Shown here piece after piece: positions 5,079 to 55,015 of a DNA stretch of 64,000 bases (its first letter is position 1; each line of letters begins with the position of its first letter). Both the position numbers and the translations under genes were made by a program. The stretch is taken from positions 43,853 through 107,852 of the forward strand of contig CBDCTS010000007.1 in the NCBI GenBank assembly GCA_965222345.1, given 5' to 3'. The stretch comes from Terriglobia bacterium (GTDB lineage Bacteria > Acidobacteriota > Terriglobia > 2-12-FULL-54-10). The notes below the pieces were generated by a model that had not been told where the DNA came from, ran no database searches, and was given only the letters and a program-made list of their open reading frames with translations.

Positions 5079-6377
5079 GTGGATAACAAGAAACCTAGTC
5101 GCAGGCGATTCCTGAAGGAGGGAGTTGCGCTGCCGGTTCTCGCCATGGGTGGAATAGGCTCGGCCAGAGGTCAGACAACTGGGGCCCAGACACCCAAAGT
5201 ATGGCCCGAAGAATCCCGCGCTTATGGCAAGCGCTCAAGCTTCGACGACTTGGGGCGTGTTACCGAAAGCGGTAATCTCAGCAGCGGTGCGTTATTGACT
5301 CCGCATCAGGATTTGGAGGGGATCATCACTCCATCCCCACTCCACTACGTGGTGTCGCACGGGAATATTAATTCTGCCTTGGCCATCGACCACCGGAAGC
5401 ATCGTTTTCTGCTCCACGGCTTGGTCGACCGTCAATTGATCTTCACCCTGGAGGAGCTGAAACGCCTGCCCTCCGTATCCCGGATTCACTTTCTCGAGTG
5501 CTACTCCAACACCAACCCAACCCATCGGGTTCCTGTCGGCCCTGCCTCCAATACCACCCCAAGTTATCGGGGCCATGAGACGGTCCAGCTATCGCACGGG
5601 CGCACCAGTTGCAGCGAATGGACGGGGGTAAAGCTGTCCATGCTGCTCAAGGAGGCAGGCCTGCAGCCAGGGGCCAGTTGGCTGGTTGCGGAAGGGGCAG
5701 AGGCGGCTAGGCTTGCGATAAGCATTCCGCTGGAGAAGGCCATGGACGACGCGATGCTGGCCTACGCGCAAAATGGCGAGCCGTTGCGTCCTGAGAATGG
5801 CCACCCCTTGCGTCTGTTGGTCCCCGGCTTTGAAGGGATCAATAGCGTGAAGTGGCTGAGGCGAATCAAGGTGGTGGACCGGCCCTACGGGACCAAGAAC
5901 GAAACCGCCCAGCACACCCACCTGGGACCGGACGGCAAAGCGCGTTGGTTCATGTTCGAATTAGGGCCGAAGTCGGTCGTCACCAGACCCTCGGGCGGAC
6001 AGCGATTGCCTGGCCCCGGATTTTACGAGATCACCGGATTAGCTTGGTCGGGTGGAGGTACCATCCGAAGGGTGGAAGTCTCCACCAACGGGGGCCGAGA
6101 CTGGAAAGATGCGCAGCTTCAGGAGCCGGTGCTGCGATTGGCACATACCCGGTTTCGCTTCACTTGGAATTGGAACGGAGAAGAGGCGGTGTTGCAGTCC
6201 CGCTGCACCGACGATCAGGGGACCGTCCAGCCCTCGATAACCGAGGTTGCTAACGTCTGGGGTGTGAGCCTGGACTATTTCCAAACCACAACCAATAGCG
6301 TCGGGAGGTTCAATCCCATTCAACCCTGGAGGGTAACCCGTGAAGGTAACGTTCAAAATGCGTTATGGGAGTTCTAA
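5079..6377 (+). CDS. Sulfite-oxidase-family molybdopterin oxidoreductase (SorA/SoxC-like sulfite dehydrogenase catalytic subunit), TAT-exported
   Basis: Twin-arginine motif SRRRFLKEG at the N-terminus. The Mo-domain and dimerisation region are conserved. ~65% identical to the paralog at 16999..18249. The 3' end overlaps the downstream cytochrome gene. Confidence 0.75.
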   Translation: MDNKKPSRRRFLKEGVALPVLAMGGIGSARGQTTGAQTPKVWPEESRAYGKRSSFDDLGRVTESGNLSSGALLTPHQDLEGIITPSPLHYVVSHGNINSALAIDHRKHRFLLHGLVDRQLIFTLEELKRLPSVSRIHFLECYSNTNPTHRVPVGPASNTTPSYRGHETVQLSHGRTSCSEWTGVKLSMLLKEAGLQPGASWLVAEGAEAARLAISIPLEKAMDDAMLAYAQNGEPLRPENGHPLRLLVPGFEGINSVKWLRRIKVVDRPYGTKNETAQHTHLGPDGKARWFMFELGPKSVVTRPSGGQRLPGPGFYEITGLAWSGGGTIRRVEVSTNGGRDWKDAQLQEPVLRLAHTRFRFTWNWNGEEAVLQSRCTDDQGTVQPSITEVANVWGVSLDYFQTTTNSVGRFNPIQPWRVTREGNVQNALWEF

Positions 6378-48599: not shown

Positions 48600-49133
48600 A
48601 TGAGAAAAATAATTCAAGATTTCCTCGATGAATATCTTCGCTACAGGATTACAGCGGAAAAAGCGATGGCTCAAGTTCCCGACGATGCTTTGAACCGCAT
48701 CGTCACCCCCTCCGGCAACTCCATCGCGATGCTAGTTCGCCATATCAGTGGAAACCTGACCTCCCGGTTTACGGACTTCTTAACGACGGACGGAGAAAAA
48801 CCGTGGCGCAATCGCGACTCAGAATTTGAAACCAGGGAGTACCAGCGCAGCGAGGTTAATGATCTGTGGGAAAGGGGATGGGCAGTGCTGGAGAAAGAAC
48901 TGGGCTCCGTAACGGATAGCGACCTGAGCAAGACGGTCCGGATTCGCGGCCGGGCATGGACCGTACATGAGGCACTGACCCGATCGCTTGCCCACTCGTC
49001 ATACCACGTCGGAGAGATCGTCCTGCTTGCGCGAATGTTCTCCGGAGCCGAATGGAAGTGGATTAGCATTCCGAAGGGAATGTCCAAACAGTACAGCCAA
49101 AACCCGACGCTAGAAAAAAAACCATCCTCGTGA
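48600..49133 (+). CDS. DinB/YfiT-like (DUF1572) putative metal-dependent hydrolase
   Basis: …MLVRHISGNLTSRFTDF… …SLAHSSYHVGEIVLL… with a His-rich four-helix DinB_2 pattern. Confidence 0.55.
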   Translation: MRKIIQDFLDEYLRYRITAEKAMAQVPDDALNRIVTPSGNSIAMLVRHISGNLTSRFTDFLTTDGEKPWRNRDSEFETREYQRSEVNDLWERGWAVLEKELGSVTDSDLSKTVRIRGRAWTVHEALTRSLAHSSYHVGEIVLLARMFSGAEWKWISIPKGMSKQYSQNPTLEKKPSS

Positions 49134-49421
49134 TGCTTTTCACAACTCCTGGGCGCGGGCAACACTCCAAAACCGTATTTGTAAGATATAAACCCGCATT
49201 TCCATTTTGAAAACGCAGCTGCAATCTTCTGCTAACCTCCCACATCAATGCGGTGTCGGACGAATCTGGCCTTCGGGAGTGGTTGCAAGGGGTCGTGAGG
49301 ACTTCTGGCAGGTGGGTTCTGAGCTAGCGGCCCTCTCGGAGGGAAAATTGAACTCGGTGGGACGCAAATGGGTGTATATTTTCAATCGTTGGAAGGGCAA
49401 AAAGGAAATTACGGCTAAGAT

Positions 49422-50771
49422 ATGAGAAGTTTGGAACAACTGTTTGATGACCTTTGCGAACAGCGATTTCATCTCGATTTCAGTCGCATCGAGCTTCAGC
49501 GTTTTCGTGATGGAAACCAGTTCATTGGACCGGGGTACATTCGCCAAAAGGTTCCGCGGGATTTCGAGATCAAGATTTACGCAAAGGGTCGTGTAGATAT
49601 CTCCGAATTCTTCAAGGAATTCCAGTCCGTTAAGCCAGGGGTGTTTTATGAGGAGAATGACCTCTACCGTCTGAGTGCGACTGACATTTACGGCAGACGC
49701 TGGACAGCTGAAGGGATTGTTAATCCCGAACCGAGCGGCCTCGCTCACGGCGACGGGTACATCGTTGTCGCCACATGCAACGAATTAGCACTTACCGAAA
49801 GATCGTCGAAACAGAACTCTACATCTCTTTCACTAAGGTCGTTGGCTCCGATCCGATTCCCCTACAACGTGCATACTGAGGAAACGACTCGCATCGGTCA
49901 ACAGGAACGTCGTGGTCGCCGCCTCAATGTAGCGCAGTTTACGTCGAATGGATTTGATTTTCTCTTTAAAGACGATCAAGGTCTCTCCGTTTGGGCGGTG
50001 TTTAAGGGCCAGTCATTACCAGCGAGGGCCACCGAACGAATTACGGAGGCGGTCGCATTCACTCTTGGCACGCTGCCGCTATGGACGATGCGCACTTGCT
50101 CCGATGGAGGCAGCCAAGTCACACGTTTTCAGAATCCTAAGCAGCCCTTCAGGAAGTCGACACCGTGGCCTCCCTATAGGGTTGAACTCGTGGATGACAC
50201 GGGGGCGATCTGGGGAATGTTTGACAAGTACCTGGCCTACGTGCTGCGGGATACAGAGAATCAGACCCATCCGTTATCACGATGGGTCGGCAGTATAGGA
50301 CTAGCCCGCGGCAGCTCCCTGGAAGGTCTAGCCCTAACACTTGCCGTCGCAGTCGAATCTGTCTTGGATCAATTTTACAAGGACATCGGACAACCGGCGT
50401 CTACGTATGTGAAAGCTGTCGAAGATTTGATTGAACATCTGGAGAAATGGGACGGAGATAACCATGTTATTTCACGTGCGAAGGGCTCGATCAGCGGTTT
50501 GAAGGGTGCTCGTGCTGATGATCGGTTGCGGCAGTTGGTGAACGACGGAGTAATATTCGAGAACGACCGTGTGGCATGGAAGAAACTTCGTAATGCCGCT
50601 GCTCACGGCAGCTGGGACTTCAATGGTGACAGTCTGCAGAAACTGCTGGACCTGACAGGGACTGCTCTTTGTTTATTCAATCGGCTCGTATTCTGCCTAA
50701 TCGGTTATTCGGGTAAGCAAACCGATTACGGAAGGCATGGCTGGCCAACTGTGGAATACGTTCCCGGATGA
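49422..50771 (+). CDS. Hypothetical protein (449 aa) with a C-terminal helical domain carrying an R-x4-H (HEPN-like) motif, in a low-GC island
   Basis: No family recognised by eye. C-terminal …VAWKKLRNAAAHGSWDF… The local GC is clearly lower than flanking DNA. A 136-bp gap separates its stop from the methyltransferase start. Confidence 0.6.
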   Translation: MRSLEQLFDDLCEQRFHLDFSRIELQRFRDGNQFIGPGYIRQKVPRDFEIKIYAKGRVDISEFFKEFQSVKPGVFYEENDLYRLSATDIYGRRWTAEGIVNPEPSGLAHGDGYIVVATCNELALTERSSKQNSTSLSLRSLAPIRFPYNVHTEETTRIGQQERRGRRLNVAQFTSNGFDFLFKDDQGLSVWAVFKGQSLPARATERITEAVAFTLGTLPLWTMRTCSDGGSQVTRFQNPKQPFRKSTPWPPYRVELVDDTGAIWGMFDKYLAYVLRDTENQTHPLSRWVGSIGLARGSSLEGLALTLAVAVESVLDQFYKDIGQPASTYVKAVEDLIEHLEKWDGDNHVISRAKGSISGLKGARADDRLRQLVNDGVIFENDRVAWKKLRNAAAHGSWDFNGDSLQKLLDLTGTALCLFNRLVFCLIGYSGKQTDYGRHGWPTVEYVPG

Positions 50772-50907
50772 GTTTCAAGCATCTGTACCGGTATGTAAAA
50801 GAGTTTGCGGGGCGGCAGAATATCCGCGAGTTTGGCACTTTGGATCAAATGGGATTGCTTGCTCAGGGTATAGTCGGCAAGCGGCTTCGTTACAAGGATT
50901 TGACGGC

Positions 50908-52284
50908 GTGAAACCCAACTGGAAAAATCAGACTATATGGACAGGCGACAACCTGCCAATCATGCGCGGTATGAACTCCGAGTCCGTTGATCTTATCTAT
51001 CTTGATCCGCCGTTCAATTCCAAAACCGACTATGCAGCCCCAATCGGCAGCAAGGCAGCAGGGGCCGCTTTCAAAGACACTTGGAAGCTTTCCGATGTAG
51101 ATGTGGAGTGGGTGAATCTAATCGAGGAAAAGCATCCGGCTTTGCACCGCGTATTGCTGGCCGCAATGACAAATAGCGACAAGTCCTATTTGGTGTACAT
51201 GGCTGCGCGGTTATTGGAAATGCGCCGAATTCTGAAGCCGACCGGCTCAATCTACCTGCATTGCGATCCCACTATGTCGCACTACCTGAAACTGGTAATG
51301 GATGCGGTATTCGGCACGTCGAGCTATGCGAATGAGATTGTTTGGCGGCGGACGCCCGCCAAGGCTTTGATGACTAAGCGGCTTCCGACAAATCACGATT
51401 TGATCTTGTCGTATCAGCGCACCGATCAGGCGATATGGAATTCCGATGCGGCTTTTGTCCCTTACGACCCTGTCAACTTGGACGAAAAGACTGCTTCCAA
51501 GTACCGCTACAAGGACCCTGACGGTCGCATTTACAGGCTCGACAACCTCATCAATCCGAACAAGGATCGTCCCAATCTGACTTATGAGTTCTTGGGTGTC
51601 ACGCGCGTTTGGCGATGGACGCGGGATAGGATGCAAGCGGCCCATGCTGCGGGCTTGGTGGTGCAAAGAAGGCCGGGTAGCGTCCCCCAGCTTAAGCGGT
51701 ATCTCGACGACCAGCGAGGCAGGCCGATGGGCGATGTTTGGAACGACATTTCTCCGATCAATTCACGTGCGCAGGAACGCATAGGCTATCCGACGCAAAA
51801 GCCCGTCGCCTTGCTCGACCGAATCATCCGCGCCAGTTCTAACGAAGGCGATATTGTACTAGACCCATTTTGCGGTTGCGCAACAACCTTAGCGGCGGCA
51901 GACCGCTTAAAACGCTCCTGGTTGGGAATTGACATATCGCCAAAGGCGGCGGAACTTGTTGTCCGGCGCATTACAGCGCAGCAAGGATTATGGCGCAATA
52001 TCATTCACCGAACGGATATCCCCAAAAGAACCGATATCGGCAAGCTACCTCCGTATAACAGCCAATCAAACCGTCAAAAGCTTTATGGAATCCAAGAGGG
52101 AAATTGTGCCGGATGCAATACGCATTTTGAAACCCGTCACCTGGAAGTGGATCACATCATTTCCCGCAGCAACGGGGGCACGGATCACATTGAAAATCTG
52201 CAACTGTTGTGCGGCAACTGCAACCGGGTCAAAGGCGACCGAGGCATGGAATATCTGAAAGCGAAGTTGCAGATTGGGGGCTAG
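50908..52284 (+). CDS. Beta-class N6A/N4C DNA methyltransferase fused to a C-terminal HNH endonuclease domain
   Basis: Motif IV DLIYLDPPFNS, then ~290 aa (TRD-like) and motif I VLDPFCGCATT, the beta-class order. C-terminal HNH: CAGCN…EVDHIISRSNGGTDHIENLQLLCGNCNRVKG. GTG start at 50908 with AAGGA 9 nt upstream. An alternative ATG at 50737 would add 57 aa. Confidence 0.75.
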   Translation: MKPNWKNQTIWTGDNLPIMRGMNSESVDLIYLDPPFNSKTDYAAPIGSKAAGAAFKDTWKLSDVDVEWVNLIEEKHPALHRVLLAAMTNSDKSYLVYMAARLLEMRRILKPTGSIYLHCDPTMSHYLKLVMDAVFGTSSYANEIVWRRTPAKALMTKRLPTNHDLILSYQRTDQAIWNSDAAFVPYDPVNLDEKTASKYRYKDPDGRIYRLDNLINPNKDRPNLTYEFLGVTRVWRWTRDRMQAAHAAGLVVQRRPGSVPQLKRYLDDQRGRPMGDVWNDISPINSRAQERIGYPTQKPVALLDRIIRASSNEGDIVLDPFCGCATTLAAADRLKRSWLGIDISPKAAELVVRRITAQQGLWRNIIHRTDIPKRTDIGKLPPYNSQSNRQKLYGIQEGNCAGCNTHFETRHLEVDHIISRSNGGTDHIENLQLLCGNCNRVKGDRGMEYLKAKLQIGG

Positions 52285-52460
52285 TGAGTGGTCAAAGAAT
52301 ACACCGGAGCTTGGCTAGTTTGGTATGTAATGCCCTTTTTAATACAGCCCCGAGTTCCTCCAATCTTCCAATTTGAACAAAAGGGGAAATCAATTCCCTT
52401 CTACAGGCCATTGCGGATAAAATTTACCGGCTCGGAGTTTGGAAAAAGGGGAGATGATCC

Positions 52461-53528
52461 ATGCGCAAGATAAACCGCCTGACAGCAGCCGTTCCCATCC
52501 TGTTGCTTTTGCTATTTGCCGTGATGATGGGAAGGAAGGTGTTGTCCGTTCCAGCCGGGCTGGACAATCCCCAGGAAACCCATCTCCGCAACCTACGTCA
52601 ACTTACCTTCGGGGGCGAAAACGCGGAAGCCTATTTTTCAGCTGATGACCGCCGGCTGATCTTTCAAACTCACCAGGGCGAGGGGAGCTGCGACCAGATA
52701 TACGTAATGGATCGCGAGGGCGGCAGCCCACGGATGGTGAGCACCGGCAAAGGGCGGACCACCTGCGCCTATTTCTTTCCCGACGGGCAACGCATTCTCT
52801 ATGCTTCGACCCACTTGGGCAGCGCAGCCTGCCCTCCCCCGCCGGATTACTCTCGCGGTTACGTCTGGCCTCTGGAGAAATCCTATGACATCTTCACGGC
52901 TAAGCCGGACGGCAGCGGCCTGCAACGTCTGACCGCCACGCCGGGCTACGATGCCGAGGCCACCATCTCCCGCGACGGCAAGAAGATCGTTTTCACTTCC
53001 GTGCGCAACGGGGACCTCGATATTTACAGCATGGACGCTGACGGCAAGAGCATAAAAAGGCTGACCCACGAAACGGGCTATGATGGGGGAGCCTTCTATT
53101 CAGCAGACGGTGCCCAGATTGTCTACCGTGCACATCATCCTACCGACCCCAAGGAACTGGAAGATTACCAAGCCTTGTTACAGGAAGGATTGATCCGCCC
53201 CAACCAACTGGAACTGTTCGTCATGGATGCAGATGGCGGCAACAAACGTCAAGTGACCCGCAACGGCGCCGCCAATTTCGGACCCTTTTTCCATCCCGAC
53301 GGGAAACGAATCATCTTCAGCAGCAACCTGGCCGACCCCCGTGGGCGAAATTTCGACCTCTACCTCATCAACGTGGACGGTTCGGGGCTGGAGCGGATCA
53401 CTTACGACGATAGCTTTGACGGCTTTCCCATGTTCACCTCAGACGGCAAACAACTGGTTTTCGCTTCCAACCGTAACGCCCAAAAGCAGGGCGACACAAA
53501 CATCTTTCTGGCCGATTGGGTCGACTGA
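52461..53528 (+). CDS. Periplasmic TolB-like beta-propeller protein (PD40/WD40-like repeats)
   Basis: Signal peptide; repeated …F(S/T)(A/S)DG(K/Q)x(I/L)(V/I)F… PD40 units. RBS GGGGAG upstream. Confidence 0.7.
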   Translation: MRKINRLTAAVPILLLLLFAVMMGRKVLSVPAGLDNPQETHLRNLRQLTFGGENAEAYFSADDRRLIFQTHQGEGSCDQIYVMDREGGSPRMVSTGKGRTTCAYFFPDGQRILYASTHLGSAACPPPPDYSRGYVWPLEKSYDIFTAKPDGSGLQRLTATPGYDAEATISRDGKKIVFTSVRNGDLDIYSMDADGKSIKRLTHETGYDGGAFYSADGAQIVYRAHHPTDPKELEDYQALLQEGLIRPNQLELFVMDADGGNKRQVTRNGAANFGPFFHPDGKRIIFSSNLADPRGRNFDLYLINVDGSGLERITYDDSFDGFPMFTSDGKQLVFASNRNAQKQGDTNIFLADWVD

Positions 53529-53752: not shown

Positions 53753-55015
53753 ATGGAAGACCGACTCCGAATAGCCGTTTTTATCGATTTTGACAACATC
53801 GAGATCGGCGTAAAAGATACCCTGGGAAGAAACTTTGACGTCTCCGCCGTCCTGGAAGCGTTGAAAGAACGGGGCGAAATCCTGACGAAAATTGCCTACG
53901 CCGACTGGACCCGGCAGGGCTCGCTCAGCCGCAACATGACCCAGCACGCCGTGCAGATGGTGCAAAGACACCCGAGTCCCCGGGGCGACAAGAACGGCGC
54001 TGACATCAATCTGGCGCTCGACGCCCTGGAGATGGCGCTGACCAAGCCGCACATCGACGCCTTCGCCATCGTCTCCGGCGACAGCGACTTCATTTCCCTG
54101 GTGGAAAAACTGAAGCAATACAACAAAACCGTCTTCATCGTGGGTGGGCGAGCTTTCACCAGCACCATTTTGCAGAAAAACTGCCGGGAATTTATCAGTT
54201 ACGAGAGCCTTTTGGCGCCCGCTTCCTCCGGACGGGGCCGAGGGTCGCAGCGAGCTTCGAAATTGTCGCCTGCCCTTCCCCTCTCGAACGTCGCTCCTCT
54301 GGTTGTCAGGGCTCTGGAAGTGCTTGCCCGGCGGGAGGTGCAACCGCAGCTGGGACTGCTGAAAAGCACCATGCTCCAGCTCGATTCCTCCTTTACGGAA
54401 AGGGACTACGGCACCTCTTCGTTCCGCCAATTCGTGGATATGCTCCACAAAGCGCACATCGTCCAGGCCAAGAAGGTTGGCGGACAATTCATCGTTTCAG
54501 ACCCCCAGCAAGAGAAGGAAGAGGATGCCGAGCAACCCCTCCTCAAACGCGAGGACGCGCTTCCGGCGCTGTACAAGGCGCTGAAGGTCATTGACGAGAA
54601 CGACCTTTGGGGAAAGCTCGGCTTCGGGGACGTGAGGCAATACGTGGAGCGCCTGGAGCCCGACTTTGATGAAACGCGCTACGGCTTCGGTCAATTCGCC
54701 GAACTGCTGAACTATGCCCAGGACCTGGGGCTGATCCGGCTTGAACCGGATGACCTGTCCGTTTTGCGGGTCGCCCCCGGCACGCAGTTCACTCCCACGC
54801 GGGACACGATCCCGGAGGCTATCGAATCCCTCGCTCTCTCCGCCGAACCTGGTGCTGCAGATACGGTGGAAGCTTCCCCGGAAGCCGCCGTAGCACCCTC
54901 TCCCGAGCCAGCCGAGCCCGCCCCGCAAAAACCGAAGAGGCCCTACCGCAGGCGGAGCCGGAAGACTACCGGCAGAGCGCGCCAGCCGCGCAAGTCGCCT
55001 CCGGCGGAACAGTAA
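53753..55015 (+). CDS. NYN (LabA-like) nuclease-domain protein with OST-HTH/LOTUS domains and a basic Pro-rich C-terminal tail
   Basis: N-terminal …IAVFIDFDNI…YADW… …GADINLALDA…IVSGDSDF… NYN core. Central helical OST-HTH-like repeats. Tail …KPKRPYRRRSRKTTGRARQPRKSPP. Confidence 0.65.
   Translation: MEDRLRIAVFIDFDNIEIGVKDTLGRNFDVSAVLEALKERGEILTKIAYADWTRQGSLSRNMTQHAVQMVQRHPSPRGDKNGADINLALDALEMALTKPHIDAFAIVSGDSDFISLVEKLKQYNKTVFIVGGRAFTSTILQKNCREFISYESLLAPASSGRGRGSQRASKLSPALPLSNVAPLVVRALEVLARREVQPQLGLLKSTMLQLDSSFTERDYGTSSFRQFVDMLHKAHIVQAKKVGGQFIVSDPQQEKEEDAEQPLLKREDALPALYKALKVIDENDLWGKLGFGDVRQYVERLEPDFDETRYGFGQFAELLNYAQDLGLIRLEPDDLSVLRVAPGTQFTPTRDTIPEAIESLALSAEPGAADTVEASPEAAVAPSPEPAEPAPQKPKRPYRRRSRKTTGRARQPRKSPPAEQ

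Follow-up and report, generated by a model that had tools for sequence, protein, structure and literature searches.

Do two adjacent genes of defense type in a low-GC segment of a Terriglobia bacterium contig form one dedicated module, or did they come together by separate routes? The segment in question covers positions 49134-52460 of a 64,000-nucleotide stretch (NCBI GenBank assembly GCA_965222345.1, contig CBDCTS010000007.1, positions 43,853 to 107,852 of the forward strand; hereafter the window, whose own numbering is used below). It carries gene 1, for a protein with the R-x4-H (Rx4H) motif of HEPN RNases, and gene 2, for a methyltransferase (MTase) fused to an HNH nuclease; both open reading frames (ORFs), co-oriented as an earlier prediction made from the sequence had placed them (the original prediction), were confirmed. 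That prediction had joined the two into one dedicated module, in which gene 1 would guard a restriction-modification (R-M) enzyme in the manner of PrrC/RloC, a proposal that fits poorly with the transposase relic between the genes, their separate mobility, the missing ABC-ATPase and the scarce co-occurrence of their homologs. We instead consider it moderately probable that the low-GC segment is a mosaic of two self-sufficient mobile defense-type cassettes that were placed side by side by rearrangement.

A transposase relic at the junction

The 136-nt spacer between genes 1 and 2, whose nature the original prediction had missed, is a relic of a transposase of the IS1595 family of insertion sequences (IS). 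A tblastn search with the transposase of L026, one of the loci with a gene 2 homolog (loci outside the window are given by such handles), matched positions 50744-50932 of the window on the + strand (44% identity over 63 aa, E = 8e-10 / 1e-10), and a profile of six transposase C-termini had its sole match in the six-frame translation of the window at 50753-50908 (E = 3e-12, the next best being 3.2). A Pfam scan of the relic peptide was uninformative, as the DDE_Tnp_IS1595 domain ends before the relic begins. The relic extends to the natural end of the transposase, in a frame that differs from that of gene 2, and its TGA overlaps the GTG start of gene 2 (GTGA); similar stop/start overlaps are found between consecutive genes in L032 and L033. 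This overlap, an AAGGA 9 nt upstream and the conservation of the first 18 residues in homologs all back the originally proposed GTG at 50908 as the start of gene 2; one database entry starts at M19 (50962), another at this GTG. A 515-aa ORF from ATG 50737 was rejected as an open-frame artifact, its first 57 codons overlapping the relic in another frame.

Gene 1 as a probable cassette of its own

Close copies of gene 1 are found in L001 and L009. The window DNA is 93.5% identical to L001 over 49375-50766 and 92.3% identical to L009 over 49419-50766 (matching gene 1 regions: window 49422-50766, L001:6001-7345, L009:2998-4342), and the L001 and L009 proteins are 87% and 84% identical to the window copy, respectively; the rest of the island has no match in these loci beyond a short diverged piece of the MTase gene. 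The homology stops at 50766, five bases before the gene 1 stop codon, and this break is where the transposase relic starts. Because of the break the window protein is without the 11-residue tail of its 460-aa homologs, a tail that is not conserved in the family, several members of which end at the same point as the window copy. In L001 the gene 1 homology starts at the outer edge of the right inverted repeat (5930-5953) of an IS element; an IS insertion into a window-like site was considered for this locus and rejected, the left flank of the L001 element being unrelated to the window upstream of 49375. These alignments indicate that gene 1 likely moves alone.

The ratio of non-synonymous to synonymous substitution rates (dN/dS) between the three close copies (window, L001, L009) is 1.0-1.1, and 1.25-1.8 in the HEPN half of the protein. 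Together with the 11 residues lost at the junction and with a homolog in L013 that looks frameshifted, these values would fit a window gene 1 that is a decaying, non-functional copy left by rearrangement, with an island devoid of HEPN activity. We consider such decay quite improbable, as the gene is open over 449 codons in all three copies, with no stop or frameshift despite ~70-80 non-synonymous changes per pair, every family-invariant residue is kept, and the lost tail is not a conserved feature of the family. Changes within the Rx4H motif fall on N391, A392 and A394, with R390 and H395 retained. We take the dN/dS of ~1 to reflect an immune gene that evolves fast rather than a decaying one.

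MTase-HNH genes as cargo of IS1595 elements

Homologs of gene 2 are found elsewhere as IS1595 cargo. A 3,733-bp unit is present at two sites on one 9.2-Mb contig at 99.95% identity (L025:5283-9015, L026:5283-9015); it is bounded by perfect 24-27-bp inverted repeats and carries a 222-aa gene, an MTase-HNH gene and an IS1595 transposase gene. The element of L001 (2774-5953), with inverted repeats matching at 21/24 positions and a frameshifted transposase, also holds an MTase-HNH gene, and the order in L032 and L033 is transposase, small gene or P63C, MTase-HNH. The transposases are full in L025/26 and L033 and truncated or frameshifted in L032 and L001, and L033:2543-8374 is a tandem duplication of a P63C-domain gene plus MTase-HNH, with a 42-residue relic of the transposase C-terminus, similar to that of the window, between the copies. 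In three of 80 viral or proviral MTase loci, the gene immediately upstream of the MTase encodes an IS1595 transposase. We found no description in the literature searched of MTase-HNH as a specific IS1595 cargo; IS-associated methylase genes, IS1595 included, had already been noted (PMC2853133, citing Siguier et al. 2009).

Three further observations concern these elements. The host flanks of each of the L025/L026 copies are mutually reverse complementary over ~27 nt, as if the element were centered in a palindrome, i.e., they look palindromic rather than directly repeated. One of the two copies lies inside a Type I hsd locus, and the tandem duplication of L033 adjoins a HEPN_Swt1-DUF499 gene and a gene for an AAA_15 ATPase.

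Gene 2 keeps both of its active sites

Gene 2 was confirmed as a beta-class MTase with a bona fide C-terminal HNH domain, as had been predicted. It matches PF01555 N6_N4_Mtase (E 2.4e-45, 155.7 bits against a cutoff of 26.7) and PF01844 HNH (E 5.4e-13, 49.3 bits against a cutoff of 21.4), and it shows the beta-class order, with motif IV (DPPF) preceding motif I (DPFCGCATT) by 286 residues. In an alignment of 40 homologs D33-P34-P35 of motif IV is invariant and F36 nearly so; D319-P320-F321-x-G323-C-A-T of motif I and, in the HNH domain, C400, C403, H416, N430, C435, C438 and N439 are invariant as well. The HNH domain thus has the beta-beta-alpha-metal composition, with its catalytic His, structural Asn and two CxxC zinc ligands, and is of the IscB/Cas9 zinc-finger type that is known from transposon-associated nucleases. 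Because the catalytic and zinc-binding residues are invariant across these homologs, both active sites of gene 2 appear to be under selection.

This single-chain architecture is by no means rare: a homolog search yielded at least 8,000 candidates at E < 1e-20, and its top 120 matches are all full length, 60-77% identical and composed of the same two domains. We found no description of the fusion in the searchable literature, which is weak negative evidence. The small ORFs that follow MTase-HNH genes, including the one at 52288..52473 in the window, share no homology among themselves.

Over residues 10-360, a stretch that takes in its target-recognition domain (TRD), gene 2 shares 54-56% identity with stand-alone phage methylases (Streptomyces and Mycobacterium phages). 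At 70 of the 80 viral or proviral MTase loci the alignment stops before the nuclease region, so that these are apparently stand-alone methylases, one locus (L055) has the HNH domain, and eight (L035, L059, L068, L075, L078, L082, L095, L102) have at the same C-terminal position an Mrr-type PD-(D/E)xK domain (Mrr_cat / PD-(D/E)xK, NA-iREase1-like); the MTase-Mrr fusion of L078 directly follows an IS1595 transposase. Between the window and L001 the TRD differs and the catalytic parts are conserved, the two MTases being only 50% identical. Nuclease swapping and TRD diversification are typical of restriction enzymes and of R-M systems, respectively, and the interchangeable nuclease domains and differing TRDs seen in these sequences fit a restriction-type enzyme.

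The same data could be read differently, with gene 2 as an orphan methylase of phage type and its HNH domain at the service of the transposon, in target nicking, homing into unmethylated sites or addiction. The repeated tight linkage to IS1595 and the ancestral translational coupling to the transposase speak for such a role, as do the 55% identity of MTase and TRD to phage methylases that work without a nuclease, the IscB/Cas9-type zinc finger shared with transposon-associated nucleases, and the two near-identical copies (99.95%) of one element in a single genome. On the other hand, the family stays intact and conserved at loci (window, L001, L032) whose transposase gene has been truncated or frameshifted, which argues that it is kept without active transposition; the exchange of HNH for an Mrr-type restriction endonuclease and the diversification of the TRD suit restriction better than a transposition cofactor; and an addiction role is not really distinct from the selfish behavior of R-M systems. 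On balance we consider a transposon-serving HNH domain rather unlikely.

Gene 1 is a HEPN protein outside the named families

The original prediction had recognized no known counterpart of the gene 1 protein, and our searches agree: there was no match in Pfam, NCBIfam, PADLOC or PHROGs, and the PDB yielded no sequence relative, whether gene 1 or family profiles served as queries. A word-indexed search returned 20 relatives; an exhaustive profile search extended the family to 2,488 representatives (50% clustering), and E was <= 1e-30 for 1,120. The best 150 of the 2,488 are ~320-600 aa long, mostly 450-500 aa, and are matched nearly end to end; many family members come from Planctomycetota and soil metagenomes, and several Planctomycetota relatives have C-terminal extensions of 60-80 residues. 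One relative, in a metagenome-assembled genome of Phycisphaerales (L013:10001-11346), is split over two frames, by a frameshift or an assembly error.

The protein contains KKLRNAAAHG, and R390 and H395 of this motif are invariant in alignments of 19, 102 and 144 relatives. The 102-member alignment has G36, P251, R390, H395 and Y429 as invariant residues, and the only invariant columns among the 144 diverse relatives are G36, R390 and H395; since R390 and H395 are among so few, the Rx4H pair appears to be the signature of the family. An AlphaFold2 model (predicted local distance difference test, 81.4; predicted template modeling score, 0.78) has a beta-rich N-terminal half (~1-240, about 17 strands), built from small barrels, and a helical C-terminal domain (~260-427) with the four-helix up-and-down arrangement of the HEPN fold, the Rx4H lying at the end of helix 380-395. 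A Pfam scan of 102 family members gave weak, sub-threshold HEPN matches in several, to HEPN_MAE_28990 (seven members, best E 2.4e-5), RiboL-PSP-HEPN (seven, 5.1e-5), HEPN_Apea (five, 4.7e-4) and DUF4145 (two, 9.2e-4), the other matches being a C-terminal DUF2934 in eight members (best E = 8.3e-12) and one weak CHAD. A PADLOC scan of family members yielded nothing meaningful, with one relative matching Cas13-ApeA at 0.0067. The assignment of gene 1 as a HEPN protein, which the original prediction had drawn from the Rx4H arrangement, is well supported by the fold, the invariant motif and the sub-threshold HEPN matches of its relatives, and the family is outside every named HEPN family.

Neighborhoods and co-occurrence

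We looked at about 13 distinct chromosomal loci and four plasmids with gene 1 relatives. L001 has the IS1595::MTase-HNH element, within a conjugative-element region; L009 has IS66/IS3 only; L002 has a transposase and an integrase fragment; L010 has Hachiman (HamA and helicase); in L003-L006 a Type III Mod + Res pair lies directly downstream of the gene 1 relative; L021 (212-8409) holds a 1,074-aa Eco57I-type Type IIG enzyme, three unknown genes, the gene 1 relative and then a RiboL-PSP-HEPN protein; L014 has RhuM and an IS200-like gene; and L007, L011, L012, L013 and L017 have nothing recognizable beside the relative. The four plasmid loci, with distant relatives, carry Abi, PIN, GASH, CHAT and DUF3800 genes and integrases, and no annotated methylase. 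Gene 1 relatives thus appear to reside in varied defense islands without a fixed partner.

The neighborhood conservation that a dedicated module would imply was not borne out. Among the 12 loci with usable flanks besides the window, MTase-HNH is present at one and unrelated R-M types at two more, and tblastn found a beta-class MTase at L001 and L003-L006 only. Conversely, a gene 1 relative is present at none of five other distinct chromosomal or plasmid MTase-HNH loci retrieved with gene 2 (L024, L025/26, L028, L032, L033) and at none of the 80 viral MTase loci. The upstream partners of MTase-HNH elsewhere are a 222-aa protein, P63C, and 65-aa and 128-aa ORFs, all unrelated to gene 1; the 222-aa gene of L025/26 was considered as a cryptic HEPN or gene 1 relative and rejected (no Pfam match, hhalign probability 0.6%).

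These counts bear directly on the dedicated module, in which MTase-HNH would be a front-line R-M enzyme and the HEPN protein a latent RNase freed when a phage disables restriction, according to the logic of PrrC/EcoprrI. Such a module would account for two genes that lie side by side in one orientation, with no terminator-like site separating them on the + strand; L001 also has MTase-HNH 1.4 kb from gene 1, by a separate insertion; one gene 1 relative is directly upstream of Type III Mod/Res and another near a Type IIG enzyme; and R-M loci that contain a HEPN protein are well documented (PMC3710099). We nevertheless think it improbable, given that the junction is a truncated transposase gene, that no MTase lies near L009 or most other gene 1 relatives, that gene 1 relatives are absent from the five MTase-HNH and 80 viral loci, that MTase-HNH has other upstream partners, that gene 1 is without the ABC-ATPase of PrrC/RloC, and that in L001 a reverse-strand transposase separates the genes. 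A broader version, in which MTase-HNH and MTase-Mrr are a widespread class of minimal single-polypeptide R-M enzymes on IS1595 and the HEPN proteins of the gene 1 family are functionally tied to them as back-up RNases in the manner of PrrC, would explain two separate IS1595::MTase-HNH insertions beside near-identical gene 1 copies; we consider it improbable to a similar degree.

Composition and features of the island

The G+C content of 49134-52460 is 51.5%, against a window mean of 57.1% (standard deviation 1.7, segments of the same size), and it is the lowest-GC 3.3-kb segment of the 64-kb window (0/541 non-overlapping positions as low). The flanks have 53-60% GC, with the DinB-like gene alone at 53%, so that the dip noted originally is real and the contrast then drawn (~50% against >60%) was overstated. 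Pfam searches agreed with the original description of the flanking genes (Table 1). At the island borders in the window we found no direct or inverted repeats, tRNA or integrase, an Rfam scan of the window found no RNA family, and the 288-nt leader of gene 1 has no significant RNA structure (z = 0.34) and no Rfam match.

Two side observations were made here. A 24-nt inverted repeat, 79% complementary, has arms at 50974-50997, inside the 5' end of gene 2, and at 52416-52439, just downstream of it; the downstream arm overlaps the possible IS end, and the repeat may be due to chance. In addition, an NYN-domain RNase fused to OST-HTH/LOTUS is encoded at 53753-55015, on the same strand and two genes downstream of the island.

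Table 1. Features of the low-GC segment and its flanks, in window coordinates
Feature	Position	Strand	Basis
DUF1572/DinB-like flanking gene	48600..49133		Pfam
Leader of gene 1, moving with its cassette	49375..49421	+	Start of the region of 93.5% DNA identity to L001
Gene 1, 449 aa: beta-rich N-terminal domain (~1-240) and C-terminal HEPN (~260-427)	49422..50771	+	
Codons of R390-N-A-A-A-H395, predicted HEPN catalytic motif	50589..50606	+	R390 and H395 invariant, 144-sequence alignment
Relic of IS1595-family transposase, last ~47 codons and stop	50768..50911	+	tblastn, profile search
Gene 2, 458 aa: beta-class N6/N4 MTase (motif IV, TRD, motif I) and C-terminal zinc-finger HNH	50908..52284	+	Pfam
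Possible degraded right end of an IS1595-type element (weak)	52409..52420	+	12-nt exact match to core of L001 inverted repeat
PD40-repeat TolB-like flanking gene	52461..53528		Pfam

Two probably independent cassettes and their likely functions

According to the two-cassette reading, gene 2 would have come in on an IS1595-family transposon, as cargo whose translation was coupled to that of the transposase, and a deletion or recombination would have removed most of the transposase gene, joining the cassettes of gene 1 and gene 2; with ~80% of the transposase gene lost at the gene 1 junction the element would now be immobile. What is left in the window is best described as a fossil, with only the last ~47 transposase codons remaining and no clear ends. 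The two genes do not need each other if this is so, and their pairing is probably an accident of mobile-element traffic, not a two-gene system.

Gene 1, with its HEPN fold, invariant motif and residence in defense islands, is most likely, by analogy, a stand-alone, ApeA-style abortive-infection RNase. Its beta-rich N-terminal domain (~240 residues) may sense an infection cue, two HEPN domains would dimerize to create a composite R-x4-H site, by analogy with ApeA, DARNA and HEPN toxins, and the activated protein would stop the growth of the infected cell by cutting cellular RNA, either mRNA or the anticodon loops of tRNA. Gene 2, its two domains intact and its homologs linked to transposons, is from its sequence most likely a minimal self-contained R-M or addiction enzyme; it would methylate DNA at a site read by the central TRD, and its HNH domain would presumably cut or nick unmodified DNA, with methylation protecting the DNA of the resident.

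Several points weigh against this account. Our neighborhood sample is small. The only trace of IS ends in the window is the 12-nt core match at 52409-52420, which has the orientation and position expected of an IS end and outer bases that are not conserved, and as an IS end it is suggestive only. The HNH-methylase fusion could serve transposition or homing instead of restriction, and the dN/dS of ~1 and the loss of the 11-residue tail could mean decay after all. Finally, IS1595::MTase-HNH lies within 1.5 kb of two of the three closest gene 1 copies (window, L001), which exceeds the naive chance expectation; the two neighbors are on different sides, in different orientations, and their MTases are the pair with only 50% identity, leaving a residual hint of coupling, via separate events.

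If the two-cassette reading holds, each cassette is of interest in its own right. Gene 1 represents a large family (thousands of clusters) that has no entry in Pfam, NCBIfam or PADLOC and in which an unrecognized beta-barrel domain is joined to a predicted HEPN RNase; as an abortive-infection system of a single protein, this family is a concrete new candidate. Gene 2 represents an abundant methylase-nuclease fusion that travels on IS1595 transposons and whose nuclease domain, HNH or Mrr, is interchangeable. Should it prove a true one-chain R-M enzyme, it would rank with the smallest self-contained restriction systems, and would make for a transposon that carries its own defense or addiction device. 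Neither finding needs a new principle of immunity.

Comparison with known systems

PADLOC v2 matched neither gene to a named defense system beyond generic MTase models, in keeping with the original prediction that the pair fits none. The closest counterpart to gene 1 is possibly ApeA, said to be a single-protein HEPN anticodon nuclease from the work of Gao et al. 2020. Like ApeA, gene 1 encodes a single polypeptide whose Rx4H HEPN domain, at the C-terminus, follows a non-catalytic N-terminal region, and it resides in defense islands; a few relatives have weak HEPN_Apea matches, one homolog is labeled 'ApeA N-terminal domain' in UniRef, and a sensor joined to an RNase effector acting in abortive infection is the logic the two probably share. 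The differences are considerable, however: characterized ApeA is ~580 aa long, mostly alpha-helical, with catenin-like N and PafA-like Mid domains, and forms decamers/dodecamers (bioRxiv 10.64898/2026.01.26.701840), whereas gene 1 has 449 aa and a beta-rich N-terminal half in place of alpha-helical N/Mid domains on a split HEPN. In addition, the window protein was unmatched by the ApeA profiles (HEPN_Apea, ApeA_NTD1, PADLOC ApeA), and of the 102 relatives five matched HEPN_Apea, at E >= 4.7e-4, and none ApeA_NTD1.

Other HEPN systems differ in layout. DARNA, with an N-terminal HEPN and a helical C-terminal sensor of single-stranded DNA, is the reverse of gene 1. PrrC and RloC have an N-terminal ABC-ATPase/NTPase domain and are embedded in an R-M operon (PMC3710099); gene 1 shares with them the HEPN Rx4H nuclease and, sometimes, R-M neighbors (the Type III pair of L003-L006), but it has no ATPase domain (no family match, and a beta-rich barrel N-terminus) and no conserved R-M partner, the Type III pair being found at one of ~13 distinct loci and most having none. 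HepT of HepT-MntA (PDB 5YEP, 7AE2, 8XDJ) is ~130 aa long and is AMPylated by its MNT antitoxin, whereas gene 1 is extended at its N-terminus by 240 residues and has no nucleotidyltransferase gene next to it. Gene 1 thus shares the sensor-plus-HEPN-effector logic of ApeA, DARNA and PrrC/RloC and is a member of none of them.

Gene 2 resembles Type IIG/IIC enzymes (MmeI, Eco57I, BpuSI) in having nuclease, MTase and TRD in one chain, with a TRD that varies among homologs; these enzymes, in contrast, have an N-terminal PD-(D/E)xK domain and a gamma-class N6_Mtase, as opposed to the C-terminal HNH and beta-class N6_N4_Mtase of gene 2, which has no Eco57I or MmeI match in Pfam. Its closest stand-alone counterparts are the phage beta-class methylases noted above, e.g., Streptomyces phage Asten gp48 and Mycobacterium phage Dori gp42, which are without its C-terminal HNH. 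With regard to IS1595 elements with passenger genes (Siguier, Gagnevin and Chandler 2009, cited in PMC2853133), the L025/L026 and L001 elements are alike in transposase, terminal inverted repeats and methylase cargo, and the window differs in keeping only a C-terminal relic of the transposase, without clear ends. What is new at this locus is an unnamed HEPN family with a new N-terminal domain and an abundant, uncharacterized methylase-nuclease fusion on IS1595, both of them of known kinds.

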